A DNA stretch of 64,000 bases from Blastocatellia bacterium (lineage in GTDB: Bacteria; Acidobacteriota; Blastocatellia; UBA7656), in the NCBI GenBank assembly GCA_036003885.1, contig DASYSA010000010.1, positions 2,045-66,044 on the forward strand. The letters run 5' to 3'. A model generated the notes under the pieces. That model saw nothing but the letters and a program-made list of their open reading frames with translations. It had not been told where the DNA came from and did not search any database. The translations under genes and the position numbers were made by a program. Of this stretch, positions 1,777 to 15,437 are shown piece after piece (positions within the stretch are counted from its first letter, which is position 1; each line of letters opens with the position of its first letter).

Positions 1777-4209
1777 ATGAATGAATTCAGCGACAGCACA
1801 CCCAGCGACGTGGTGAGATGCCCCATGGTACCCATCCGGGATGTGGTCGTCTTCCCGTACACGATAGTTGCATTTGTGATCGGACGGCCGGCGAGCGTCC
1901 GCGCGCTCGAGGCCGCGCTTCGAGGCGACAAGACAATATTTCTCGCGACTCAGCACGACGCGACGATCGACGAACCCATTGTCGAACAGGTCTACTCAGT
2001 CGGCACGATCGCGAGGATAACTCACAATCTGCGGCTGCCGGATGGAAACATAAAGGTAATGGTCGAGGGTATCGAACGTGCACGCTCGGTCAGGGTCGAG
2101 GATACGGGCGATTACTGGCTTGCGACCTTGAGGAAGACCGCTCTTGCAGTGGAGCCGCGTTCGCGGCTGAACGCCCTTATCGGGCGCATTGGCTCCCTGG
2201 TCGATCAGTACGTGCGCCAGTCAACGGAGCTTGCGAACCCCGAGACCCTCACAACCGCCTTGAGGAATGATGACCCGGCGAGGTTGTGCGACACGATCGC
2301 TTCGAACCTGAAGATCTCGGTCGAGGACAAGCAGGGATTGCTGGAGATCTTCCCGGTCCAGGACCGGCTGGTGAGGCTGATTGAGGTTCTCGAAGTCGAG
2401 CTCGAGAAGATTCAAGTCGACCGCGCGATCCACGGACGAGTCAAGCGGCAGATGGAGCGCGCCCAGAAAGAGTACTACCTCAACGAGAAGATCAAAGCCA
2501 TTCACAAGGAACTGGGACGCAAGGACGAGAAGGCTGAGCTGGAAGAACTAAAGCAGAAGATCGAAGCCGCTGGAATGTCCAAGGACGCCTACGAAAAGGC
2601 TCTGGCCGAGCTTCGCAGACTCGAGCAGATGCCACCTATGTCGGCTGAAAGCACAGTGTCTCGCAATTATCTGGACTGGCTGCTGGCGGTGCCATGGAAG
2701 GACAAGACTGAAGAGGTTCGGGACATCAAGGCGGCACAGGAAGTCCTGGACGCTGATCACTACGGATTGGAAAAGGTGAAGGAACGCATTCTCGAGTACC
2801 TGGCGGTGCGTCAGCTCGTCGAACGCCCGCGCGGCTCAATTCTCTGCTTCGTCGGACCTCCGGGCGTTGGCAAGACCAGCCTGGGAAGGTCGATCGCCAA
2901 AGCGACGGGTCGAAAATTCGTGCGCCTCTCTCTGGGTGGCGTGCGCGATGAAGCTGAGATCCGGGGCCATCGGCGCACCTACATCGGGGCGCTACCCGGT
3001 CAGATTATTCAGATGATGAAGAAGGCCGCGACGGTCAATCCACTCATCATGCTCGATGAGGTCGACAAACTCGGGATGGACTTCCGAGGGGATCCCTCCG
3101 CCGCATTGCTCGAAGTGCTCGACCCTGAGCAGAACTTCGCGTTCCACGATCATTACCTGGACGTCGAATATGACCTGTCGAATGTCATGTTCATCGCGAC
3201 GGCAAATGTGCTTCACACGATCCCGGCGGCGCTGCAGGACAGGCTCGAGATCATCCGGCTGGCAGGCTACACCGAGCACGAGAAGATCCAGATTGCCAAG
3301 CGCCATCTGCTACCCAAGCAACTCGAAAGCAACGGCCTGAAGGAAGAGCACGTCAACTTCTCCGAAGATGGACTGTACACGATCACCCAGTTCTACACGC
3401 GCGAGGCGGGTGTGAGAAATCTTGAACGCGAGATTGCATCAGTCCTTCGCAAACTCGCGCGCCGGATGCTGACGGGGGAAACACCGGCAGAGAACCAGGA
3501 AAACGTCACCGGCGATCTTGTTAAGGAGTTGCTTGGACCCACGCGTTTCCGCCCGCACGCTCTTGAGGAGCAAAGTGAAATCGGGCTTGCAACAGGCCTG
3601 GCCTGGACCGAAGTTGGCGGCGAAGTATTACACATCGAAGCCTCGCTGATGAGCGGGCGCGGCAACATAACGCTTACGGGCAAGCTGGGCGAGGTCATGC
3701 AGGAGTCGGCGAGAGCGGCACTCTCTTGCGTGAGAGCCAGAGCCAAGCTGCTCGACATCACTCCGGATTTCTATAAAAAGTATGATCTGCATCTGCATGT
3801 ACCCGAGGGCGCGATTCCCAAGGACGGCCCTTCGGCTGGGATCGCGATTGCGACGGCGATCGTATCGGTTCTGACTCAGATTCCGGTTCGTCGCGATGTT
3901 GCAATGACGGGCGAGATCACGCTTCGAGGAAGAGTGCTGCCGATCGGTGGAGTGAAAGAGAAGTTACTTGCCGCCCACCGGGCAGGCATAACCACGGTGG
4001 TGTTGCCGAAGGAGAATGCAAAGGACCTGGTCGAGCTTCCGGTCGAGGTGAGGGAAGCGCTGACGATCCATACCATTGAGAGTGTGGATGAGCTGTGGAG
4101 GATTGCGCTGGAACGGCCCATAACCAGAGAGGTCCCCACGCCGGAGGTTCCCATTTGGGGACAGCAGCCGCCAGTTGACGCTCCGACTTCCAATCAGACC
4201 ATTGAATAA
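1777..4209 (+). CDS. lon: Lon protease (ATP-dependent protease La)
   Basis: 810 aa with a Lon N-domain, AAA+ Walker [10 protein letters not shown] and the catalytic Ser region PKDGPSAG. It completes the clpP-clpX-lon order. Confidence 0.95.
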
Positions 4210-4224
4210 CGGTGACAGTGATGC

Positions 4225-4899
4225 GTGTTGCGCCGGTCACGGGTCACCCATCACGCATCGCTGATGAGAATCAAGAGCGCCACGTTTGTTAAAAGCGCCA
4301 CTGCTCTCGAGCATTATCCGCGCGACGGCCGGGCGGAAATAGCTTTCCTTGGTCGTTCCAACGTCGGCAAGTCAAGCTTGATAAATAGCCTGTTGGGTGT
4401 GCGAGGATTGGCACGCACCAGCAACACGCCGGGACGCACTCAGCTTATCAACTTCTTCCTGATAAATGATGCGTTTCGCTTTGTGGACCTCCCGGGCTAT
4501 GGTTATGCGCGGGTACCGATTGCCGTGAAAGACCAGTGGGGGCCGATGATCGAGAAGTATCTTGCGATCCGACCCAATCTTGTGCTATCAGTAGTCATCA
4601 CTGATTCGAGGCGTGAGCCCACCGAGTTAGACCAGCTGATGACAGGGTGGTTGAAATCCAGGGGAAGGCCATTCATCATCGTTGCAACCAAGGCCGACAA
4701 GCTCAGCAGCAATAAGCTGAGGGAGAATCTCAGGCACGCGTCAGAGGTGTTCGGTAAGAGCGATCTCATCCCATATTCAGCGGTCACGCGAAGTGGGGCG
4801 GACCGCATCTGGAAACGGATCACCGGGCGGATCGCGGATTACGGATCGCAGATTGCCGATCATGGATTGATAGACAGTTTAGATACTCTCCACTCCTAG
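4225..4899 (+). CDS. engB: ribosome-biogenesis GTPase EngB/YihA
   Basis: G1 motif GRSNVGKSSLIN, DLPGYG and TKADK motifs. The true start may be an internal Met near 4264. Confidence 0.8.
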   Translation: MLRRSRVTHHASLMRIKSATFVKSATALEHYPRDGRAEIAFLGRSNVGKSSLINSLLGVRGLARTSNTPGRTQLINFFLINDAFRFVDLPGYGYARVPIAVKDQWGPMIEKYLAIRPNLVLSVVITDSRREPTELDQLMTGWLKSRGRPFIIVATKADKLSSNKLRENLRHASEVFGKSDLIPYSAVTRSGADRIWKRITGRIADYGSQIADHGLIDSLDTLHS

Positions 4900-5156: not shown

Positions 5157-6431
5157 ATGGCAGAAGAAGTAAATGAGTTGATGGACATTGGCGAACTCAA
5201 AGATATGTCCATCTCAAAGCTCACCCATATAGCAAAGGAGCTGGACATCCCGGGCGCCACCGGGATGCGCAAACAGGAGCTGATCTTCAAGATCCTCCAG
5301 GCTCAGACCGAAAAGAGCGGCCTGATATTCTCCGAGGGCGTGCTTGAGACGCTGCCCGACGGATTTGGCTTCCTGCGCGCCCCCGACTACAACTACCTGC
5401 CCGGACCCGACGATATATACGTCAGCCCCTCGCAGATTCGAAAATTCGACCTGCGCACCGGCGACACTATCTCCGGCCAGATCCGGCCTCCCAAGGAAGG
5501 TGAGCGCTACTTTGCGTTGATCAAAGTCGAGGCGATCAACTTCGAGCCGCCAGAGCTGGCAAGAGATCGGGTCTTCTTCGATAATCTCACCCCGCTCTAT
5601 CCCGAGGAGAAACTGCGCCTGGAGACCGATCAGGAGAACCTCGCCGCTCGCGTGCTGGATCTCATGACCCCGATTGGAAAAGGCCAGCGGGCCCTCATCG
5701 TCGCTCCACCTCGAACCGGAAAGACGATGCTCCTCCAGAACATCGCCAACTCGGTCACCCGGAATCATCCGGAGGTCACCCTGATAGTTCTGCTGATCGA
5801 TGAACGGCCCGAGGAAGTCACCGACATGCAGCGCTCTGTTCACGGCGAAGTCATAAGCTCGACCTTCGACGAGCCCCCGACCCGCCACGTCCAGGTCGCG
5901 GACATGGTTATCGAGAAAGCGAAGCGGCTCGTGGAGTACAAACGGGACGTCGTAATCCTGCTCGATTCCATCACCAGACTCGCGCGGGCGCACAACTCGG
6001 TCGTCCCCCCCTCGGGCAAGATCCTGTCCGGCGGCATCGACTCGAATGCGTTGCAGAAGCCGAAGCGATTCTTCGGCTCAGCCAGAAACATTGAGGAGGG
6101 TGGCTCGCTCACGATAATCGCTACTGCTTTGATAGACACGGGATCCAGAATGGACGACGTGATCTTCGAAGAGTTCAAGGGCACCGGCAACCTCGAGATC
6201 AATCTGGATCGAAAGCTCACCGAGAAGCGTATCTTCCCTTCGATCGACATCAACAAGTCCGGTACTCGCAAGGAAGAGTTGCTGCTGGCGCCGCCCGACT
6301 TCAACCGCATCATTGTACTGCGCAGGGTGCTATCGCAGCTTTCACCCACTGAGGCTATGGAGCTCCTGCTCGATAAGCTGAGCAAGACGAAAGCCAACTC
6401 GGACTTCCTGGATTCGATGCAGTCTCAGTAG
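5157..6431 (+). CDS. rho: transcription termination factor Rho
   Basis: 424 aa with an N-terminal RNA-binding domain and RecA-type ATPase motifs ([11 protein letters not shown]). A roughly 250-nt leader precedes it, as is typical for rho. Confidence 0.95.
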
Positions 6432-6600: not shown

Positions 6601-8730
6601 ATGACTTCCTTCAGGGCCATTGCTCTGGCCGCAGGCATTGCGCTGGTCACTGCCGGCTCCACCGGGGCGCAGAGATCATTCAAGTATCCGGAGTCTAAAA
6701 GGATGGATCAGGTTGATGACTACCACGGCACCAAAGTAGCCGACCCGTATCGCTGGCTCGAGGATGCGGACTCTGAAGAAACCAGAGCCTGGGTGGCAGC
6801 ACAGAACAAACTGACCCACAGCTATCTCGATGAAATACCGGCAAGGGCCCAGATCAAGGAACGCTTAACCAAACTGTGGAATTTTGAGAGGTTCAGCGCA
6901 CCCTTTAAAGAGGGCGACCGCTACTTCTATTCCAAGAACGATGGTCTGCAAAACCAGAGCGTCATCTATACGACCACATCCCTGGACTCACGCGCCGAAG
7001 TGCTAATAGACCCGAACAACCTCTCAAGCGACGGCACGGTTGCGCTCACGGGCCTGGAGATCAGCCGCGACGGCAAACTGATGGCGTATGGACTCTCCAC
7101 CTCCGGGTCTGACTGGCAGGAGTGGAGGGTGCGCGACGTCGAGACCAGAAAAGACCTTCCCGACCTGGTAAAATGGGTGAAGTTCTCCAGTGCATCGTGG
7201 ACACCTGACGGCAAGGGGTTTTTCTATAGCCGCTATGATGAGCCCAACGAAAAGACCAAGATGGCCGCCGCGAACTATTTTCAGAAACTCTACTTTCATC
7301 GCGTCGGCACGCTTCAGTCCGAAGACCTCCTGGTCTATGAACGGCCCGATCAAAAAGAGTGGGGATTCGGCGGCACTGTCACCGAAGACGGCCGCTACCT
7401 GATCATCAGCGTATGGAAAGGGACCGATCGCAAGAACCGGATCTACTATAAAGACCTTCAAGCCAGGGACGCCAGGGTAGTCACGCTGCTCGATGAGTTC
7501 GATGCATACTACGGCTTCGTTGGCAACGACGGACCACTCTTTTGGTTTCAGTCCGACTTCAATGCTCCTCGGGGAAGACTCGTCGCTATCGACACAACAA
7601 AGCCCGAGCGGAAAAACTGGAGGGAACTGGTCCCTCAAACCGCCGACACTCTCGACAGCGTCACTGTAGTGCACGATAGGTTTATCGCTTCCTACTTGAA
7701 AGATGCTCGCACCCAGGTCAAGGTGTTCAAACTCGACGGGACGTTCGTGCGAGAAGTTGACCTGCCCGGTATCGGAACCGCGCGAGGATTTGGGGGGAAG
7801 CGCAAAGACAGAGAGACGTTTTATGCCTTCACTGGATTCACTACCCCGACCACCATCTATCGTTATGACGTCGCAACCGGCAAGAGCACGATCTTTCGGC
7901 GCCCGAAAGTCGATTTCAATCCCGGCGACTACGAGACGAAACAGGTCTTCTATGAAAGCAAGGACGGCACGCGGGTACCGATGTTCATTGTTCACAAGAA
8001 AGGCTTGATCCTGAACGGCGCCAATCCGACCTACCTCTATGGTTACGGCGGCTTCAACATTCCGACCGTTCCGGCGTTCTCGGTCAGTAATCTTGTGTGG
8101 ATGGAGATGGGGGGCGTCTACGCTTCCGCCAATCTTCGTGGCGGAGGCGAATACGGCGAAGATTGGCACCAGGCGGGCACAAAACTGCAAAAGCAGAATG
8201 TGTTCGACGACTTCATCGCAGCGGCTGAGTGGCTGATCGCGAACAAGTACACATCGACGCCAAAGCTCGCAATCGGCGGCGCAAGCAATGGCGGCCTCCT
8301 CGTAGGAGCCGCCCTCACTCAACGTCCTGACCTGTTCGGAGCGGCCCTGCCCGCGGTGGGCGTCATGGACATGCTTCGCTTTCAGAAGTTCACAATCGGT
8401 TGGGCGTGGGTCTCCGACTACGGGTCCTCAGATAACCAGGAAGAGTTCAAGGCGCTGTACGCCTATTCTCCGCTGCACAATATCAAACCGGGGACCAGGT
8501 ATCCGCCGACAATGGTGACAACAGCCGACCATGATGACCGGGTCGTACCCGGCCACAGCTTTAAGTTCGCCGCGGCTTTGCAGGCCTCGCAGGGAGCGCC
8601 GGCTCCAGTCTTGATTCGCATCGAGACCAAGGCGGGGCATGGCGCGGGCAAACCTACCTCGAAAGTGATTGAAGAGATCGCGGACTGTTGGGGCTTCCTT
8701 GTAAGGGTGCTGGGAATGAACCCAGCGTAG
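6601..8730 (+). CDS. prolyl oligopeptidase (S9A family) with N-terminal signal peptide
   Basis: 709 aa with a beta-propeller N-terminal region and a C-terminal alpha/beta hydrolase carrying GGSNGG around the catalytic Ser and a downstream HGAG. A signal-peptide-like N-terminus is present. Confidence 0.9.
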   Translation: MTSFRAIALAAGIALVTAGSTGAQRSFKYPESKRMDQVDDYHGTKVADPYRWLEDADSEETRAWVAAQNKLTHSYLDEIPARAQIKERLTKLWNFERFSAPFKEGDRYFYSKNDGLQNQSVIYTTTSLDSRAEVLIDPNNLSSDGTVALTGLEISRDGKLMAYGLSTSGSDWQEWRVRDVETRKDLPDLVKWVKFSSASWTPDGKGFFYSRYDEPNEKTKMAAANYFQKLYFHRVGTLQSEDLLVYERPDQKEWGFGGTVTEDGRYLIISVWKGTDRKNRIYYKDLQARDARVVTLLDEFDAYYGFVGNDGPLFWFQSDFNAPRGRLVAIDTTKPERKNWRELVPQTADTLDSVTVVHDRFIASYLKDARTQVKVFKLDGTFVREVDLPGIGTARGFGGKRKDRETFYAFTGFTTPTTIYRYDVATGKSTIFRRPKVDFNPGDYETKQVFYESKDGTRVPMFIVHKKGLILNGANPTYLYGYGGFNIPTVPAFSVSNLVWMEMGGVYASANLRGGGEYGEDWHQAGTKLQKQNVFDDFIAAAEWLIANKYTSTPKLAIGGASNGGLLVGAALTQRPDLFGAALPAVGVMDMLRFQKFTIGWAWVSDYGSSDNQEEFKALYAYSPLHNIKPGTRYPPTMVTTADHDDRVVPGHSFKFAAALQASQGAPAPVLIRIETKAGHGAGKPTSKVIEEIADCWGFLVRVLGMNPA

Positions 8731-8853: not shown

Positions 8854-11637
8854 TTACGTCCGGCGTTCCTGCATCCCCGGCTCCTTCCCGAGGACAAGCG
8901 GTTCGACTCCAAGCCCAACACCCGCGCCGAAGAGCAGTCCCTCGATCGCGCCGCAGATTATTTGCGTCGTCTTGCCGAAATGCACTTCGCCGAAGAAGGG
9001 AGCAAGCGGGTCAAGCCTGATCTGCGAATCGGCAAACGAACGAGCCACAATCTCGAGACTGCCGCTGAAGAGGTTTCCCCCAATCACCGTCAACGCAATG
9101 CCGGCAAACATCGCGCCCAGGCTCGCAGCAAGCACCTTCTGCCAGGGTCGCGCGTCCGCAACCAGCCGTCCAATTGCGACCGCGCCCAGCGGAACGCCCG
9201 CTCCCAGCAGGGCCCCTTCAAGCGACCCCGCAATTCCGTCAGGGTTCTGTCCGAACACGGCCCTCAGTATGTCGATGCCCAACAGCTTGAACGCTCCTCC
9301 AACCGCAGCTCCTCCGGCAGCCCCTCCGACCACCGACCACCATCGACTATGACGATAGGCTATGTGTGACGCTACGACCATTCCGAAGCTCACGCCAAAC
9401 GCGCCAATCGTTCCGATGAGGGTTCCGAGGCTGACCAATACGAAAATCAGTTTTCCAGCTTCGAGCGCTGTCGCCTTCTGAGCCCACGCCAACACGGCTC
9501 CGAGCAGCAACCCGCCCGCAACTCCCGAGACGGCCCCTCCGAGCACGCCTCCGGTCCCCTGACGCAAGATCTCAGGCCAGCCTCGTCGTAGCCTCACCCA
9601 CATCAGCCCGAGCACTACGAGGCCTGCTGTGGGAATCGAGAGTCGATTGAGCCTCAGCAGCTGCTTGTCATAGTCGCGTATGATCGCGAGGCTCACCGCG
9701 CGGCGAATCAGTCCCGGTCTTTCGATGCCCTCACCCTCGGACAGAACAGCCTCTGCTGCCTCCTGGAACCAGACGGCAAGAGCGATGCTCGCGGCCTTCC
9801 TCACACCCAAGTCAGAATCCCACAGAGCAAGCCGCCTCAGTATCGTATTAGCCTGATCGGTTCGCAGCGACTGAGATGCCTCGACCGCACTCAGCCTGAC
9901 ATCGCAATCATCATGACGAGAAGCTTCGGCAATGATGGCGATTGCGCTCGGAGCTCGGTGGACGAGCCAGTCGGGCAGCGGTCGCCCTCGACTCAACCCG
10001 CTTGTGGCCAACAGGTCTGCTTCTTCGCCTGTAAGACCCAGTTCTTCGCCAAACGGCAGCAGAACATCGAGCGCATCGGCGTCGATCACCAGGTTATGCG
10101 CCCGGTAGTTCTCCATCGCGCGCTCGATGACTCCTCGAGCCTGCTTCAACGCGCGCTCTTCATCGGTCAACCATCGAGACACCTCGGGAGTCAGGAAGTC
10201 GTGAGCCAGCTCAAGCCAGGTCTCGCCGTCTTCCCGGCTGCGGCGAACCACCCGCGCCGCTACCAATTCTTCGATCAGTCTATTCGCATAGTCCGTGCCT
10301 TGCGACGTGCGCTGTCCCAGTCGCGCCGCAAGCTCCGATGAGCGCAGAACCAGCCTACGGCCGTCAATCGAGATCAACGCCGTGAGAATTGCCTTGGCAA
10401 CGCGAAGCTCCGGGGCGTCGAATCGGTTCAATACTCGTTCGAGGTAGCCGGCCAGTATCTGGGAGGCGGTGCCCAGATGCTCGTACGCCGCGGTTGTGAG
10501 CCGGCCATCCGGATCTCGCGAGTCGTAAAGGCTGTCGCAAACGATCTGCAACTGGGGTGGTTCGATACTGCCCTTATCGCTCAAATCATCAAGCAAACGC
10601 TGGACGAGCTCCGGTTCGTACCGGCACCCCACCGCGTTGGCCGGCCCGGTGATCGCAAGCGCCGCCTGCTCCCGGCTCAGCCGAGTAAGGCGATATTCGT
10701 GATGAAAGATCTCGCTGACGGCGGTCTTGAAGCGGCTCATCTCCGCGAGGTAGTCTTCGCGCAAAGCGAAGACCAATCGCAGGTTCAGGTCTTCGCCGAC
10801 GGCGAGGCGGGCAATCGAGTCGATGAACTGCTGCTGACTCTCTTCACCCAGCAGTGAGAAGAATTCCTCGAACTGATCGAAAAAGAAGATGACGAAGCGT
10901 CTCGGTGAAGAGCCGGCTGCAGATGCGATCAAATCGGCGATCGGCATCGCCGCTTCAAGCCCAACTCCTTCGTTCGTTTCGACGAGGGCACTCATCATTT
11001 GATGAAGCGGATCGCTGAAGCTTCGGATCGCGAAGACCAGATGCCCGTCGGCTTTCAGGCGCGGCATGAGCCCGGCTCGCAGAATCGAGCTCTTCCCGAC
11101 GCCCGACCTGCCATGAAGGATAAATGAACGGTGAGCCAGAATTTGCGAGCATATCGCTTCGACTTCCGCTTCGCGGCCGAAGAACAACTTCGCATCCTGC
11201 TCGGTGTAGTAATCGAGAAACTTATAGGGTCGGGGGGTGGTCGCCGGCTGGACGAATTCGGGCGCGGCCACGGCGCTTTGTCCCGGCGCCTCGACCGCGT
11301 TTCCAATGAAGACATATCCGTGTTTGGGAACGGTCTTGATGTAGCGCGGGTTGGATGCATCGTCGCCAAGCTGGCGGCGAATGTCCTTGATGCACTGGGT
11401 CAGCGCTGCATCGGTGACGAACACGCCATCCCATATCTCTTCGAAGATGTGCTGCTTTTCGACAAGTTCGCCTCCCCGGCTGACAAGCATCAGCAGCACG
11501 TCAAAGTACTTTGAACTGAGCGGAACAGGTTTTCCTTCCCTCCAGAGTTGCCTGTTCCTCGCGTCCAGGTGGAAGCCGTCGAACCGATAACCCGCCACCG
11601 CGCTAATGACCTGGGTCATACCGCTTGATTTTCTCAC
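8854..11637 (-). CDS. membrane-anchored signal-transduction NTPase: OmpR/CadC-type winged-helix DNA-binding domain + P-loop STAND/AAA NTPase + HEAT repeats + C-terminal glycine-zipper multi-pass TM domain
   Basis: The N-terminus (high-coordinate end) shows the trans_reg_C pattern (YRFDGFHLD...LSSKYFDVLLMLVSRGGELVEKQHIFEEIWDG...IKTVPKHGYVF). Walker A GRSGVGKSS follows, then a Walker-B-like FVIFFFDQFEE. A HEAT-like segment comes next (DCDVRLSAVEAS...DSDLGVRKAASIALA). The last ~250 aa hold at least four hydrophobic Gly-rich helices (GGxxGGxxxG). The likely start is Met 7 of the ORF (MTQVIS). Confidence 0.8.
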   Translation of the reverse strand: MRKSSGMTQVISAVAGYRFDGFHLDARNRQLWREGKPVPLSSKYFDVLLMLVSRGGELVEKQHIFEEIWDGVFVTDAALTQCIKDIRRQLGDDASNPRYIKTVPKHGYVFIGNAVEAPGQSAVAAPEFVQPATTPRPYKFLDYYTEQDAKLFFGREAEVEAICSQILAHRSFILHGRSGVGKSSILRAGLMPRLKADGHLVFAIRSFSDPLHQMMSALVETNEGVGLEAAMPIADLIASAAGSSPRRFVIFFFDQFEEFFSLLGEESQQQFIDSIARLAVGEDLNLRLVFALREDYLAEMSRFKTAVSEIFHHEYRLTRLSREQAALAITGPANAVGCRYEPELVQRLLDDLSDKGSIEPPQLQIVCDSLYDSRDPDGRLTTAAYEHLGTASQILAGYLERVLNRFDAPELRVAKAILTALISIDGRRLVLRSSELAARLGQRTSQGTDYANRLIEELVAARVVRRSREDGETWLELAHDFLTPEVSRWLTDEERALKQARGVIERAMENYRAHNLVIDADALDVLLPFGEELGLTGEEADLLATSGLSRGRPLPDWLVHRAPSAIAIIAEASRHDDCDVRLSAVEASQSLRTDQANTILRRLALWDSDLGVRKAASIALAVWFQEAAEAVLSEGEGIERPGLIRRAVSLAIIRDYDKQLLRLNRLSIPTAGLVVLGLMWVRLRRGWPEILRQGTGGVLGGAVSGVAGGLLLGAVLAWAQKATALEAGKLIFVLVSLGTLIGTIGAFGVSFGMVVASHIAYRHSRWWSVVGGAAGGAAVGGAFKLLGIDILRAVFGQNPDGIAGSLEGALLGAGVPLGAVAIGRLVADARPWQKVLAASLGAMFAGIALTVIGGNLFSGSLEIVARSFADSQIRLDPLAPFFGEVHFGKTTQIICGAIEGLLFGAGVGLGVEPLVLGKEPGMQERRT

Positions 11638-11762
11638 AACTTCCTCACAACGCGCTCATTTTTCTCGGAGCGCTTCAGAGTAGAGTTCGCTTAGAGATGG
11701 CTGGGACAGTCCTGGTTGCCGGGAAAAGCGGCCAGGTCAGTCGAATCATAAGGGAGCAAAGC

Positions 11763-12254
11763 ATGATTAAAACCCTCTTCGCCCTGGAAGGGATAGGCCA
11801 GGCGCTAAAAATCGAGCACGGCGTCATACATATGGAGACCGCCGAGTGTTTGCAGTTCATCGATATCACGGACCGCATTGTTGAACTGGTGGAAGACTGC
11901 GGAATTCAGAACGGCATCGTGAACGTTCAGACCAGACACACCACTACCGCTATCATGGTCAACGAGAACGAACCGTTGCTTCTGGAAGACATGAAGCGGA
12001 CTCTGGACCGGCTGGCTCCAAGGGAGATCGAGTACGGACATAACGATTTCAGCATCCGGACCGCCAACATGCAGGCCGATGAGACGAAGAACGGCCATTC
12101 CCACTGCAAGGCTCTGTTTTTGCGCACGTCGGAGACGTTAAACCTCACCGGTGGCGTAGTCCAACTCGGAAGATGGCAGCGAGTCTTCCTGATCGAGCTC
12201 GATGGAGCAAGGAGTCGAAGTGTGTCTGTAACGGTGATGGGAAACCAGACGTAA
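11763..12254 (+). CDS. YjbQ/UPF0047 family protein (secondary thiamin-phosphate synthase-like)
   Basis: Conserved YjbQ blocks HTTAIMVNENEP, GHSHCKALFLRTS and GRWQRVFLIELDG. I chose the start at internal Met 47 of ORF 11625..12254, because the upstream part would overlap the divergent regulator gene. Confidence 0.75.
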   Translation: MIKTLFALEGIGQALKIEHGVIHMETAECLQFIDITDRIVELVEDCGIQNGIVNVQTRHTTTAIMVNENEPLLLEDMKRTLDRLAPREIEYGHNDFSIRTANMQADETKNGHSHCKALFLRTSETLNLTGGVVQLGRWQRVFLIELDGARSRSVSVTVMGNQT

Positions 12255-12417
12255 TCTCACAGTTTTCTCACACAGCCCTCATTTTTCTTGCCCCCTATCG
12301 GTCTATTGTTAGCATTCAGCCGGACAGGTAAAGCTTCCTGATGCGACCGAAGACGATTGCGACTCAAGGATCGGCCCCCTCGAAATCAGATGTTGGCGCA
12401 GAGAGAGTGTCTGAAAG

Positions 12418-13974
12418 ATGAATGACCGTACGAAGCTTGGACTCGGGATACTGGCCGTAGCAGCAATCATGGGGATGCTGGGCGACGCGCTCCTGCGGGA
12501 GACACCCTGTGGTCTCAATGTGCTGGTTTGGATCGTGGTAATGGTCGGAGCGGTCAGCACTCTGTCTCGTTTCGTGGGCAGGGATCTCCCTGGGCGCAGC
12601 CTGTGGCTCGCGCTTGCCCTGATAGGGCTCGCGGCGCTGTTCGCCTGGCGCGACTCGCCAACGCTGAAGGTGCTGGATGGAGTTGGGCTGGCCGGCGCCC
12701 TATCGGTGGCCGCATTTCGCGCCAAATCGGGACGGCTATTGCTGGCGGGGATTACCGAGTATGCGGAGGGTCTCTTCATAGCGGTCAGCAATGCCGTGTT
12801 TGGCCCTTTCATTTTGTTGCTCGAGGACATCAAGTGGCGAGAGATTCCCGGCCGGAGCCGGCCACGCCATTTTGCCGCGGCCGGACGCGGCTTGCTGATT
12901 GCTGTTCCGCTGCTGGCCGTTTTCGGCGGCCTGTTCATGGCCGCGGATGCCGCGTTCCAGAATATCATTCAGAACGTATTCGACTTCAACCTCGAGAGAC
13001 TCGTCGTCCATGGGTTCGTGGCGACGACCTGTGCCTGGAGCGCTGGTGGCTCTCTGCGAGCAGTATTTCTGCAGACAGGCCAGACGCTCGCCGCCCACAC
13101 ACAACCGGCAGCGCGCGCCGGCACCGTCGTTTTGCCGAAGGAGCAAAAGGCCCAGTCACTCTCGCTGGGAATCGTCGAAGTAGGCCTGGCGCTGGGTTTG
13201 CTAGACCTGCTCTTCTTCTGCTTCGTCGTGGTCCAGTTCCGATATTTTTTCGGCGGCGCGTCGACAGTCGAGGCGACGACCGGATTGACCTATGCCGAGT
13301 ATGCGCGGCGCGGCTTCTTTGAGCTGGTGACGGTGGCTCTCCTCGTGCTTCCTCTGCTCCTGATGGCGCACTGGCTCTTGCGAAAAGCGAACCTTACGCA
13401 CGAGCGTATTTTCAGAGTCCTCGCCGGCACGCAGATCGTCCTGTTGTTCGTTATTATGCTCTCGGCCCTTCAGCGGATGCGGCTCTATCAAGGCGAGTAC
13501 GGGCTGACCGAACTGCGCTTGTACACAACGGCCTTCATGGCCTGGCTGGCAATTGTCTTCGTCTGGTTCGCGGCAACTGTGCTGCGCGGGAAACGAGAGC
13601 GCTTTGCTTTTGGCGCTCTGGTCGCCGGGGCGGTGCTGATTGGAGCCCTCCACCTGGTGAACCCGGATGCGCTGATCGTGAGAACAAATGCTGAGCGGGC
13701 GAAAAGCGGCCGGGGATTCGACTCGCGGTACGCAACTTCGCTGAGCGCGGATGCCGTGCCTGCGCTTGTATCAGCGCTTCCGGCGCTCAGCACACAGGAG
13801 CGCAGCGCGGTCGCTTCTCGATTGCTCACTCGATGGACACCCCTCGAACACGAAGACTGGCGTTCGGCAAGCTGGTCGCGCCGGGAAGCGTGGCGGGCGA
13901 TCCAGGAGAACGGTTCCAGGTTATGGAGCACTGCCGTCTGGCAGGGAGACGAACGCCCGGATAATTCGCGGTAA
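12418..13974 (+). CDS. polytopic membrane protein (DUF4153/DUF4173-like)
   Basis: 518 aa with many hydrophobic helices throughout and no enzymatic motif I recognise. The opposite-strand ORF 12309..12968 is a high-GC artefact. Confidence 0.55.
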   Translation: MNDRTKLGLGILAVAAIMGMLGDALLRETPCGLNVLVWIVVMVGAVSTLSRFVGRDLPGRSLWLALALIGLAALFAWRDSPTLKVLDGVGLAGALSVAAFRAKSGRLLLAGITEYAEGLFIAVSNAVFGPFILLLEDIKWREIPGRSRPRHFAAAGRGLLIAVPLLAVFGGLFMAADAAFQNIIQNVFDFNLERLVVHGFVATTCAWSAGGSLRAVFLQTGQTLAAHTQPAARAGTVVLPKEQKAQSLSLGIVEVGLALGLLDLLFFCFVVVQFRYFFGGASTVEATTGLTYAEYARRGFFELVTVALLVLPLLLMAHWLLRKANLTHERIFRVLAGTQIVLLFVIMLSALQRMRLYQGEYGLTELRLYTTAFMAWLAIVFVWFAATVLRGKRERFAFGALVAGAVLIGALHLVNPDALIVRTNAERAKSGRGFDSRYATSLSADAVPALVSALPALSTQERSAVASRLLTRWTPLEHEDWRSASWSRREAWRAIQENGSRLWSTAVWQGDERPDNSR

Positions 13975-13992
13975 TCTCAAAAGGTAATTGGA

Positions 13993-14529
13993 ATGAACAA
14001 ACCCATGAAATCACTGACGATTGCAATAATGATCGGCTGCGGATTGCTCTTCGGTCTGCTGGCGACGCTGGCGGCTCTCAATCGCCACGATCAGGTCGCC
14101 GGCTTCAATCAGGAGATTCAGTACGACGACTTCGCCTTCTCAGTCCAGGGAGTGCGGACGACTCGCACCCTCGGGGACTCTACCGCTCAAGGCGTTTACT
14201 ACGTTGTGACCCTCAAGGTTGCCAATCACGCCAAACGAGTAGACTACGAGTTCAAATCCGACAGCCCGGTGCTTGTCGCGAGAGACGGCAAACAGTATCG
14301 CGTCTCGTTCGAGGCGCAGGGATCTCTCGACGCTGCGAGCGGGGCCGGCGATCGTTGCGTTAGGCCAATTCCGCCCGGATCCTCGTGCACCAGAGAGGTC
14401 GTATTCGATGTCGCCCCCGACGTCGCCGATCCTCGGCTGCGAGTATCAACCGGCGGTCTGGCAGGCGACATTCTGGACACCATCTTCTATGGGAAGAAGG
14501 TGATCAAGCTCGATCCGCAGGAAGGGTGA
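13993..14529 (+). CDS. DUF4352-like secreted/lipoprotein, 18 nt downstream of the membrane protein
   Basis: Signal or anchor helix (LTIAIMIGCGLLFGLLATLAAL) followed by a beta-rich domain. It is probably co-transcribed with 12418..13974. Confidence 0.5.
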   Translation: MNKPMKSLTIAIMIGCGLLFGLLATLAALNRHDQVAGFNQEIQYDDFAFSVQGVRTTRTLGDSTAQGVYYVVTLKVANHAKRVDYEFKSDSPVLVARDGKQYRVSFEAQGSLDAASGAGDRCVRPIPPGSSCTREVVFDVAPDVADPRLRVSTGGLAGDILDTIFYGKKVIKLDPQEG

Positions 14530-14530
14530 G

Positions 14531-14646
14531 GAAATGCGAAATTCGAAATGCGAAATTCGAATTGCGAATTTCGAATTTCTCGGTTTTCGAACGCGGGATC
14601 TGAAACCCAACAAATTCGCAATTCGAAATTCGCAATTCGAAATTCC
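14531..14646. repeat. heptamer-array hairpin element, GAAATKC family
   Basis: The left arm is about 7 tandem GAAATGC/GAAATTC/GAATTGC heptamers. The right arm holds the reverse-complement heptamers (AATTCGC/AATTCGA) across a ~30-nt spacer. It fills the gap between the DUF4352 gene and uppS. Confidence 0.7.
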
Positions 14647-14660
14647 CAGGAGGTTTTATT

Positions 14661-15437
14661 TTGCAACGTCGCGATGTTCTAACAAGTGAAGAGTATCTGC
14701 TAAGGCAGATAGACCCGGCGGTCCTTCCGGCCCACGTAGCGATCATAATGGATGGCAATGGACGTTGGGCTCGGAAGCGCAATCTGCATCGCGTCGCCGG
14801 CCATCGCGCCGGGGCAGATGCGGTGCGCAGAGCCGTCGAGACGGCTGCGCGATTGGATATTGGCTATCTCACGCTGTTTGCCTTCTCGACCGAAAACTGG
14901 AAACGCCCCCGCCTCGAGGTCGACGCACTCATGAGACTCTTGAAGGAGTTCATCAGGAAGGAACTCGCCAGCCTGCAAAAGAACAACATCCGCTTTCAGA
15001 TGATCGGGTGCAGAGAGGGATTGGAGCGCTCGGTCCTCGAAGAGGTTCGAAAAGGCGAACAGGAGACGTCAGGAAACACCGGCCTGGTCTTGAGCATCGC
15101 CCTCAACTACGGCGGCCGCGCGGAGATTGCCGAAGCGTGCCGGCAGCTTGCCCGGGAAGCGGCGGCGGGCCGCCTGGATCCCGCTATGATCGACGACGAA
15201 TTGATCGCCAGACATCTCTCTACTCAAGCGATGCCTGACCCCGATCTTCTGATTCGCACGAGCGGTGAGATGCGGGTCAGCAATTTTCTGATCTGGCAGA
15301 TCGCTTATGCGGAAATTCACGTAACTCAGACTCTCTGGCCGGACTTCGCCGAGAGAGATTTCCTGGCGGCGCTGATCGATTATCAGACGCGCGACCGGCG
15401 TTACGGCGGGGTCAAAAATGAAGCAGAAGTTCTTTGA
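14661..15437 (+). CDS. uppS: undecaprenyl-diphosphate synthase (isoprenyl transferase)
   Basis: HVAIIMDGNGRWA motif, FAFSTENWKRP and a typical cis-prenyltransferase length. Confidence 0.9.
   Translation: MQRRDVLTSEEYLLRQIDPAVLPAHVAIIMDGNGRWARKRNLHRVAGHRAGADAVRRAVETAARLDIGYLTLFAFSTENWKRPRLEVDALMRLLKEFIRKELASLQKNNIRFQMIGCREGLERSVLEEVRKGEQETSGNTGLVLSIALNYGGRAEIAEACRQLAREAAAGRLDPAMIDDELIARHLSTQAMPDPDLLIRTSGEMRVSNFLIWQIAYAEIHVTQTLWPDFAERDFLAALIDYQTRDRRYGGVKNEAEVL

Follow-up and report, generated by a model that had tools for sequence, protein, structure and literature searches.

A predicted membrane-integrated STAND regulator with an OmpR-type winged helix and putative TGAG repeat sites beside isoprenoid-lipid genes

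Results

The regulator gene and its surroundings

A 64,000-nucleotide stretch of contig DASYSA010000010.1 from a Blastocatellia bacterium (hereafter termed the window, which means this whole stretch) carries on its minus strand a gene whose predicted product unites a DNA-binding domain, an NTPase and a membrane domain in a single chain. This protein, here called the regulator, begins with an OmpR/CadC/ToxR-type winged helix-turn-helix (wHTH), continues through a STAND NTPase and a HEAT-like α-solenoid, and ends in a Gly-rich membrane module (Table 1). The same order of parts had been put forward in the original prediction, and it is borne out by Pfam matches, structural models and hydrophobicity. 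An array of TGAG repeats precedes the gene, and a second array precedes a nearby unit that includes uppS, the gene for undecaprenyl-diphosphate synthase.

The open reading frame (ORF) that had been listed for the regulator runs from a GTG at position 11637 without interruption, and this reading frame stands. Its start does not: the methionine at residue 7 (M7) is nearly invariant in an alignment of 52 homologs, and translation likely begins at the corresponding ATG at 11619. The GTG at 11637 is itself the GTG of the third GTGAG repeat, and thus lies within the DNA repeat motif. It was chosen by a mechanical ORF listing, and gene callers could in the same way stretch this gene into its own repeat site. 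Residue numbers below are those of the listed ORF.

The flanking genes are those that had been named beforehand: Pfam identifies a divergent YjbQ/UPF0047 gene and a convergent prolyl oligopeptidase with a signal-peptide-like N-terminus. For YjbQ, an ATG at 11763 or at 11835 is a more likely start than the listed one at 11625.

Table 1. Features of the regulator locus in the window (aa, amino acids; TM, transmembrane).
Feature	Position	Strand	Residues	Basis or remark
Prolyl oligopeptidase (S9)	6601-8730	+		Pfam; signal-peptide-like N-terminus; convergent
Regulator ORF as listed	8854-11637	-	1-927	927 codons from GTG, no interruption
Regulator, probable coding sequence	8854-11619	-	from 7	start at ATG 11619
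Gly-rich six-helix membrane module (predicted)	8890-9552	-	696-916	hydrophobicity, topology, AlphaFold2
Short 14-aa hydrophobic helix	9595-9636	-	668-681	long form only
HEAT-like α-solenoid	9658-10095	-	515-660	HEAT_2 match below cut-off; AlphaFold2 hairpins
nSTAND1 STAND NTPase	10096-11229	-	137-514	PF20703; P-loop core, helical arm, winged-helix domain
Walker A, GRSGVGKSS	11086-11112	-	176-184 (K182)	invariant in 53 sequences
OmpR/CadC/ToxR-type wHTH	11302-11589	-	17-112	Pfam, PDB matches, Foldseek
Repeat site 1 (putative), TGAGcgcgttGTGAGgaagttGTGAG	11633-11658	-		11-bp period; ends 13 nt before ATG 11619
YjbQ/UPF0047	11763-12254	+		Pfam UPF0047; divergent; listed ORF starts at 11625
Repeat site 2 (putative), TGAGggctgtGTGAGaaaactGTGAG	12256-12281	-		2 nt past YjbQ stop; 137 bp upstream of DUF4153-DUF4352-uppS
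DUF4153 membrane protein	12418-13974	+		Pfam; first gene of predicted target unit (12418-15437)
DUF4352 protein	13993-14529	+		Pfam; predicted target unit
UppS	14661-15437	+		Pfam; predicted target unit

Cytoplasmic domains

The assignment of the N-terminal domain is supported by several comparisons. Trans_reg_C (PF00486) matches aa 35-110 at 63.6 bits (Pfam cut-off 26.2), the wHTH is the sole region of the regulator matched among the best 25 of 42 NCBIfam matches (best match CadC), its top sequence and profile matches in the PDB are CadC and ToxR, and Foldseek superimposes it on ToxR, RstA and CadC with template-modelling scores of 0.82-0.87. A linker of variable sequence and low model confidence (aa 113-136) runs from this domain directly into the NTPase.

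The NTPase matches nSTAND1 (PF20703) at 210.4 bits (cut-off 27.1) over aa 137-514, which covers profile positions 1-374 of 379. Beside the Walker A sequence, residues D254-E257 of the Walker B sequence FFFDQFEE are invariant in 53 sequences, as is R293, a possible sensor-1 arginine. In the same alignment H479 is invariant and D480 nearly so; these residues form the His-Asp pair of the STAND winged-helix domain. Because the nucleotide-binding motifs are intact and invariant, the NTPase looks functional. Its Foldseek matches include EfAvs5, Orc1/Cdc6, Apaf-1 and NLRC4, and the nearest solved fold is that of an Avs protein.

The assignment of the region that follows combines a weak profile match with a confident model. 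HEAT_2 (PF13646) aligns with aa 563-621 at 19.2 bits, under its Pfam cut-off of 27.7, and is recorded for about 25 of 120 homologs; AlphaFold2 places eight stacked helices, arranged as helical hairpins, in aa 520-656 with a predicted local distance difference test score (pLDDT) of about 90. The full-length model, built on 53 full-length sequences (mean pLDDT 79.8), comprises the wHTH, a P-loop β-α core, a helical arm, a β-hairpin wing, the solenoid and a C-terminal helical bundle. Pfam gives no BTAD (PF03704) match to the regulator at E<=1 and no TPR match.

The C-terminal membrane module

The C-terminal portion of about 260 aa is 17% Gly and contains hydrophobic stretches with Kyte-Doolittle means of 1.5-2.2 (aa ~665-916). 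On a Hessa-type scale, four 19-residue segments of this portion fall below 3 kcal/mol, and none in the first 650 aa falls below 7.8. A separate AlphaFold2 model of the C-terminal region, built on 58 diverse sequences, is all-helical (pLDDT 89.6, predicted TM-score 0.84). Charge counts according to the positive-inside rule in 58 family members fit six TM spans with both termini in the cytoplasm: Lys and Arg average 1.4-4.1 in the predicted inner loops and 0.1-0.9 in two of the three predicted outer segments. The third outer segment (aa 857-888), at 32 aa the longest outward stretch, is net acidic. The chain ends 11 aa past the last hydrophobic helix. These sequence and model data make six spans a well-supported, though not proven, topology. 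At least four Gly-rich C-terminal helices had been anticipated; we count six predicted TM helices plus the short 14-aa hydrophobic helix.

This short helix is flanked by Lys/Arg-rich stretches (K+R averages 5.4 on the N-terminal side and 4.1 on the C-terminal side), and its 19-residue sum is 5.7 kcal/mol. The helix is probably interfacial and does not span the membrane fully, since a seventh span would invert the module relative to its insertion in the short-form proteins described below.

The hairpins formed by TM3-4 and TM5-6 constitute an internal duplication (HHalign probability 94%), and both bear a conserved 'D-x(n)-FG...(T)G-x-x-EG' pattern. D789, E807, E884 and E899 are conserved in long and short forms alike, and D876 aligns with D789 in the duplication; all five acidic residues are located near the predicted outer face. 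Conservation within the module peaks in a stretch of about 30 aa outside the membrane, between TM5 and TM6, which includes S860, L861, E862, F868 and E884 and is predicted to face outward.

Neither Pfam nor NCBIfam (the latter among its best 25 of 42 matches) listed a family covering aa 660-927 at E<=1. Glycine-zipper families such as PF13488, PF05433 and PF13441 were unmatched, and none is recorded for the 240 homologs listed. A phmmer and profile search of the PDB gave no solved relative of the module and matched the wHTH alone.

Full-length conservation of the long form

Among 5.8 billion proteins searched, more than 120 clusters cover 96-100% of the regulator with 61-93% identity and identical Pfam content. 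In a genome scan restricted to one genome per species, 99 loci were found and 80 kept. The 80 loci (designated by L numbers) represent at least six phyla. Their record titles name Blastocatellia, KSB1 (Zhuqueibacter), Calditrichota, Latescibacterota, Gemmatimonadota and Zixibacteria, as well as Sulfidibacter corallicola, which is in culture (strain M133, NZ_CP071793, homolog within 2287887-2306610); the taxon labels are those of metagenome-assembled genome (MAG) records, some of them clearly automatic. Complete genomes with the long form include CAWDRU010000002.1, OY843748.1 and NZ_CP071793.1. Identity of the long-form proteins at these loci to the window protein over the full length is 38-66%, and the closest locus, in a Blastocatellia MAG (L061), reaches 95%, which places the window in the same class.

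Such conservation bears on the idea that the C-terminus is a soluble Gly-rich tail, or that the ORF is an artefactual fusion of two genes. The Gly-rich composition and the marginal hydrophobicity of TM3 and TM4 are what this idea has to offer. Because the architecture is kept at full length in hundreds of proteins, the ORF is not a fusion artefact, in line with the original prediction; both the clusters and the genomic loci carry the complete form. A soluble tail is likewise at odds with four segments that have the hydrophobicity of membrane insertion, with the absence of such segments from the first 650 aa, with a positive-inside charge pattern obeyed in two independent architectures, and with the confident model of a helical bundle. 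We therefore regard this explanation as extremely unlikely, and read the region as a membrane domain.

In an alignment of 52 homologs, mean identity to the window protein is 80% for the wHTH, 68% for the NTPase, 68% for the helical arm with the winged-helix domain, 58% for the HEAT-like region and 66% for the membrane module. Conservation of 58-80% per domain, as judged from these sequences, is unlike that of the fast-evolving STAND proteins of conflict systems, with which the regulator has the PF20703 NTPase family in common. The nSTAND1 family was defined in predicted counter-invader systems and has so far been treated in the context of conflict. Proteins of those systems bear domains that act as effectors or adaptors (TIR, caspase, trypsin, EAD/Death-like) together with hypervariable sensors, CLec/FGE among them (PMC8195603, PMC10907252). 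Might the regulator then be an NLR-like anti-phage or conflict protein, with the membrane module as a pore-forming effector? An Avs protein is its nearest solved fold, and Gly-zipper helices are present in some pore formers. However, the regulator has a DNA-binding domain, a membrane module and a conserved repeat site in place of any effector-associated domain, matches 0 families in PADLOC-DB at E<=1, and is 62-65% identical across lineages in stable synteny among housekeeping genes, with no island-like context. A role in conflict is very improbable on this evidence.

A TGAG repeat motif at the regulator gene

The window sequence directly upstream of the start codon reads ATGAGcgcgttGTGAGgaagttGTGAGaaaatcaagcggtATG. 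It contains repeat site 1, which we infer to be a putative regulator-binding site for autoregulation and/or for control of the divergent YjbQ gene. The motif TGAG-N7-TGA(G/T)-N7-TGAG, often with a fourth or fifth repeat, is present in 60 of 75 regions upstream of regulator genes, and 69 of 86 loci contain an exact match. In long and short forms alike, the array before the regulator gene comprises 3-5 (T)GTGAG repeats at an 11-bp period. Two exact copies are found in the 64-kb window (0.01 expected by chance). Matches with one mismatch at 9571 and 56136 were set aside; they are within coding regions and are probably chance occurrences.

The distance from motif to start codon is fixed per lineage, at 13 nt for most Blastocatellia and 53 nt for the Latescibacterota group, and the repeat cores are kept while the spacers have diverged across related loci and phyla. 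Judged from the alignments, this pattern of cores and spacers typifies a protein-binding site whose repeats recur once in each turn of the helix, a layout shared with PhoB, ToxR and the SARPs. Across 1.16 Mb of related loci, almost every match is upstream of the regulator or of DUF4352/uppS.

At some Blastocatellia loci, the regulator and DUF4352-uppS have a B12-binding radical-SAM gene between them, and 13 of 13 such loci with enough flank have one site at the regulator and a second before DUF4352/uppS. In loci with hpn genes, the array occupies the intergenic region common to the regulator and ribB-hpnC-hpnD-hpnE. In Sulfidibacter, no repeats adjoin the regulator; uppS is 3 kb away on the same strand, and four repeats in the usual orientation are found 95-135 bp upstream of it. 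On these sequence comparisons the motif tracks uppS, not the regulator alone.

A scan of 241 million metagenome records with a version of the motif that has 21 specified bases returned 73 stretches. The motif precedes DUF4352/uppS in about 32 of them, a long-form regulator in 13, a gene for a secreted serine hydrolase of PF00144 (β-lactamase/PBP-like) in 16 and an S8 subtilase gene in 4; 7 have an unrelated or unclassified context. Because PF00144 hydrolase genes carry the motif, and because at L105 a gene resembling the PF00144 hydrolase of L118 follows uppS in the same unit, the regulon likely has a cell-envelope theme.

Two versions of the motif in metagenomes are of separate note. A five-repeat TGAG array is found at L095 (motif 5666-5693), L125, L122, L115 and 11 other loci, and also at L118 and L105; it is situated about 105 bp upstream of the secreted PF00144 hydrolase gene and 26 nt upstream of a gene for a 355-aa protein with no Pfam match. 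In three marine contigs (L109, L151, L154) an AT-rich version, TTGAGAAATGATTGAGAAAGTTGTGAGAA, precedes a PD-(D/E)XK nuclease gene by about 247 bp. This version is linked to neither the regulator nor uppS; it may be unrelated or of phage origin.

Conserved gene neighbours

Two kinds of divergent neighbour are conserved beside the regulator. In about 46 of the 80 loci (Blastocatellia, KSB1, Calditrichota and others) uppS is upstream and divergent, and in about 15 it is the immediate neighbour, 85-340 bp away. Between the two genes, Blastocatellia loci sometimes contain DUF4352, the B12/radical-SAM gene, YjbQ or DUF4153. In Latescibacterota, Gemmatimonadota and Zixibacteria, the divergent unit consists of ribB (or a dehydrogenase gene), hpnC, hpnD and hpnE; HpnC (336 bits) and HpnE (428 bits) both score over their NCBIfam equivalog cut-offs. 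The hpnC-hpnD-hpnE genes encode a three-enzyme route from farnesyl diphosphate to squalene. Both contexts use farnesyl diphosphate to make membrane isoprenoid lipids.

Other neighbours were considered and set aside. YjbQ is linked to the regulator in just a few relatives. A conserved link to the neighbouring peptidase had been suggested as something to look for, and it was not found: the prolyl oligopeptidase is kept only at L061, the closest relative, and the conserved partner is uppS or hpnCDE. A full hopanoid cluster beside hpnCDE was also rejected, as the genes further upstream resemble those for a sugar-phosphate epimerase and a cysteine desulfurase. The radical-SAM/B12 gene, present between the regulator and DUF4352-uppS at L013 (6396-7874, minus strand) and 15 other Blastocatellia loci, has one repeat site at either end. 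We did not adopt a hopanoid-related role for it; its best NCBIfam matches are HpnJ, HpnR and other lipid radical-SAM enzymes, all far under cut-off.

The neighbourhood also bears on whether the regulator might be held inactive at the membrane until regulated proteolysis frees an active soluble wHTH-STAND fragment. The variable, poorly modelled linker after the wHTH could be read in this sense, and cleavage-dependent activation of membrane-bound CadC is reported (PMC11484849). Yet no protease gene is consistently linked to the regulator, nothing in the sequence points to a cleavage site, and ToxR-type factors are reported to bind DNA while still anchored. We consider release by cleavage quite unlikely.

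The regulator and UppS also differ in how their identity falls between lineages. From the window to KSB1-type genomes (L008, L018, L030-L033) the regulator is 55-62% identical and the adjacent UppS just 40-45%, and within Blastocatellia the corresponding values are about 64% and about 68%. By this comparison the regulator may have been transferred horizontally between phyla, yet is found again beside uppS.

A short-form family with the same module

The original prediction had called for a survey of the Gly-zipper module alone, and this survey was informative: across a larger family of short proteins, of about 360 aa, the module is devoted to pairing with OmpR-type winged helices. A HMMER search with aa 650-927 found the module in 306 representative clusters, few of them long forms. 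Most carriers are about 340-450 aa long, and their module begins near residue 125, so that the wHTH is joined to it directly with no STAND or HEAT region. Trans_reg_C was found at the N-terminus of 10 of 10 short proteins scanned. A search seeded with a short form yielded at least 925 clusters, and PF00486 is the sole Pfam domain in all 120 listed. Annotation of these proteins goes no further than 'winged helix-turn-helix domain-containing protein' or 'transcriptional regulator', and their source names include Rubrivirga, Rubricoccaceae, Fodinibius, Gillisia, Methylomirabilota, Pseudomonadota and Paucibacter. Short and long membrane modules are 35-44% identical.

The simplest history that we infer from the sequences is that the long form is a short-form regulator with a STAND-HEAT cassette inserted between its two halves. 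One protein of 487 aa (P0186), with a wHTH, a helical insert of about 120 aa and the membrane module but no NTPase, may represent a step between the two forms.

The short-form loci carry the identical motif, with 9-11-11 spacing, upstream of their own gene. Since the wHTH and the membrane module alone are common to short- and long-form loci, we assign the motif to this winged helix.

The short forms also bear on what the membrane module does. It might be merely an anchor or oligomerization device, with the HEAT/STAND portion reading a cytoplasmic signal (a nucleotide, farnesyl diphosphate or a cell-wall precursor) and the output still being uppS/hpn transcription. Sensing falls to the helical-repeat arm in STAND regulators of the MalT and AfsR types, the HEAT-like arm here is conserved at 58% identity, and Gly-zipper helices are typical helix-packing motifs. 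But short forms that lack STAND and HEAT regions retain both module and motif, so the module itself must supply input or regulation there, and a plain anchor needs no conserved outer segment of about 30 aa with acidic residues. A purely anchoring role is therefore rather unlikely, and we prefer the module as a source of input.

The neighbours of short forms differ from those of the regulator. A polytopic protein of about 185 aa with no Pfam match is encoded divergently to short forms at L081 (5300-5851), L084 (5008-5598), L085 (5357-5914) and L088 (1872-2453), all on the minus strand. A second polytopic family (about 370-440 aa) provides the first divergent gene at L082 (4527-5645), L087 (2561-3865) and L088 (2546-3865), again on the minus strand; at L088 the 185-aa protein comes after it. 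In one 566-aa protein (P0218) the short-form regulator carries the ~185-aa membrane protein as a C-terminal extension, and this fusion indicates a functional link between the two. The partner proteins have no Pfam match and no similarity to the DUF4153, DUF4352 or YjbQ proteins of the window. A common partner for short and long forms was accordingly rejected, as the ~185-aa and ~400-aa partners are unlike the window neighbours. At the Paucibacter short-form locus (L081), an S9 peptidase gene (2430-4604) is 1.4 kb from the short-form gene and a gene for the BacA undecaprenyl-diphosphatase is about 5 kb downstream; both are probably coincidences.

Discussion

Comparison with known regulators

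No characterized family fits the regulator, as had been suspected, because the defining features of neither the SARP/AfsR nor the ToxR/CadC type are present. With ToxR and CadC it shares an N-terminal cytoplasmic OmpR-type winged helix, membrane anchoring and putative direct-repeat sites beside target genes. Whereas those proteins have one span and a periplasmic sensor, six spans are predicted for the regulator, which lacks a folded periplasmic domain; between its DNA-binding domain and the membrane lie the STAND NTPase and the HEAT-like repeats, about 550 aa in all.

The order of OmpR-type winged helix, STAND NTPase and helical-repeat arm recalls AfsR and the large SARPs of Streptomyces. The winged helices of SARPs recognize direct repeats at a spacing of 11 or 22 bp, and these proteins are activated by ATP (PMC10936776). 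Unlike them, the regulator has no BTAD, its NTPase is nSTAND1 rather than a member of the NB-ARC/NOD clade, its repeats are HEAT-like rather than TPR, and it is membrane-integrated rather than soluble. The hosts differ as well: the regulator is found in Acidobacteriota and phyla of the FCB group, and SARP/AfsR proteins in Actinomycetota.

Two further systems offer partial parallels. MalT and other LAL regulators use a STAND switch within a transcription factor, with a helical-repeat sensor arm and effector-driven oligomerization on arrays of sites. MalT differs from the regulator in having a C-terminal LuxR-type helix-turn-helix (HTH), no winged helix, no membrane part and a NTPase of another STAND clade. 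In BcrR of Enterococcus faecalis, a DNA-binding N-terminus is likewise joined to a polytopic membrane sensor at the C-terminus, and this protein governs undecaprenyl-phosphate-cycle genes. Its HTH is of the XRE type, it has four TM helices and it lacks an NTPase; the likeness to the regulator is functional, and no homology is claimed. The short regulators with a wHTH and six TM helices have a homologous winged helix, a homologous module and the TGAG motif, but neither a STAND/HEAT region nor a uppS neighbour.

We found no description of the regulator or its motif in the literature on nSTAND1 proteins, membrane-integrated one-component systems, uppS regulators and membrane-anchored STAND proteins; nor did we find a dedicated uppS regulator there. 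What is new here is the architecture and the membrane domain with its predicted regulon, and not a categorically new kind of system.

A model for regulator function

The architecture of the regulator, coupled with the placement of the repeat arrays, suggests with somewhat better than even confidence that it is a membrane-integrated, ATP-switched one-component transcription factor that controls its own gene and genes for isoprenoid lipids and the cell envelope. In such a mechanism, the winged helices would occupy successive TGAG repeats in head-to-tail order, one at each turn of the helix. The STAND module would serve as a switch between an ADP-bound closed state and an ATP-bound oligomeric state, and the oligomer would line up several winged helices on an array of three to five repeats, giving cooperative occupancy. 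Occupancy probably represses the regulator's own gene, given that the array ends 13 nt from the start codon, and would also regulate the divergent genes, in either direction.

The input would be supplied by the membrane module together with the HEAT arm; the module is proposed for this role because the short forms have nothing else to sense with. The signal may be, at a guess, the pool of polyprenyl or isoprenoid lipids or the state of the envelope, sensed from the outer-leaflet side, to which the conserved acidic residues and the best-conserved loop are assigned. The output would set the flow of farnesyl diphosphate into undecaprenyl phosphate or squalene. A more specific version of this idea is a polyprenyl-lipid homeostat, in which the module reads the pool of undecaprenyl-(pyro)phosphate or of squalene/hopanoids, or a property of the bilayer set by that pool, and an NLR-like ATP switch adjusts array occupancy and thereby uppS/hpnCDE transcription. 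We offer this version as speculation that has a minor chance of being correct.

Several observations weigh against control of isoprenoid-lipid genes by the regulator, or against parts of the mechanism. We deduce DNA binding by the regulator from co-occurrence, and a paralogous short form in the same genome could bind some of the sites. The guess at the signal is drawn from the identity of the neighbouring genes. Beside short forms lie genes for two kinds of polytopic membrane protein (~185 and ~400 aa) instead of isoprenoid genes, and since these are unrelated to those of the long form the module is not specific to uppS. Some long-form loci (L005, L019, L059) lack uppS, hpn genes or the motif within the flanks examined. 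TM3 and TM4 are merely marginal in hydrophobicity on the Hessa-type scale. Finally, a promoter and terminator scan of positions 11500-12500 found none, and with no promoter-like sites in the intergenic regions of the window, activation and repression are not distinguishable.

Significance

An otherwise unannotated membrane domain, present in more than 1000 protein clusters, is defined by this analysis. The presence of a STAND/NLR-type ATP switch in a polytopic DNA-binding membrane protein extends both the class of transmembrane regulators and that of STAND regulators. If the homeostat proposal is correct, the regulator would be the first transcriptional sensor devoted to the pool of the cell-wall lipid carrier and also the first membrane-integrated STAND transcription factor.

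The undecaprenyl-phosphate pool is the shared, limiting carrier for the synthesis of peptidoglycan, O-antigen, capsule and teichoic acid. Little is understood of how bacteria adjust the size of this pool, and the family described here is a testable candidate for such a function, one that comes with a predicted binding site, predicted targets and a cultured host, Sulfidibacter corallicola M133.

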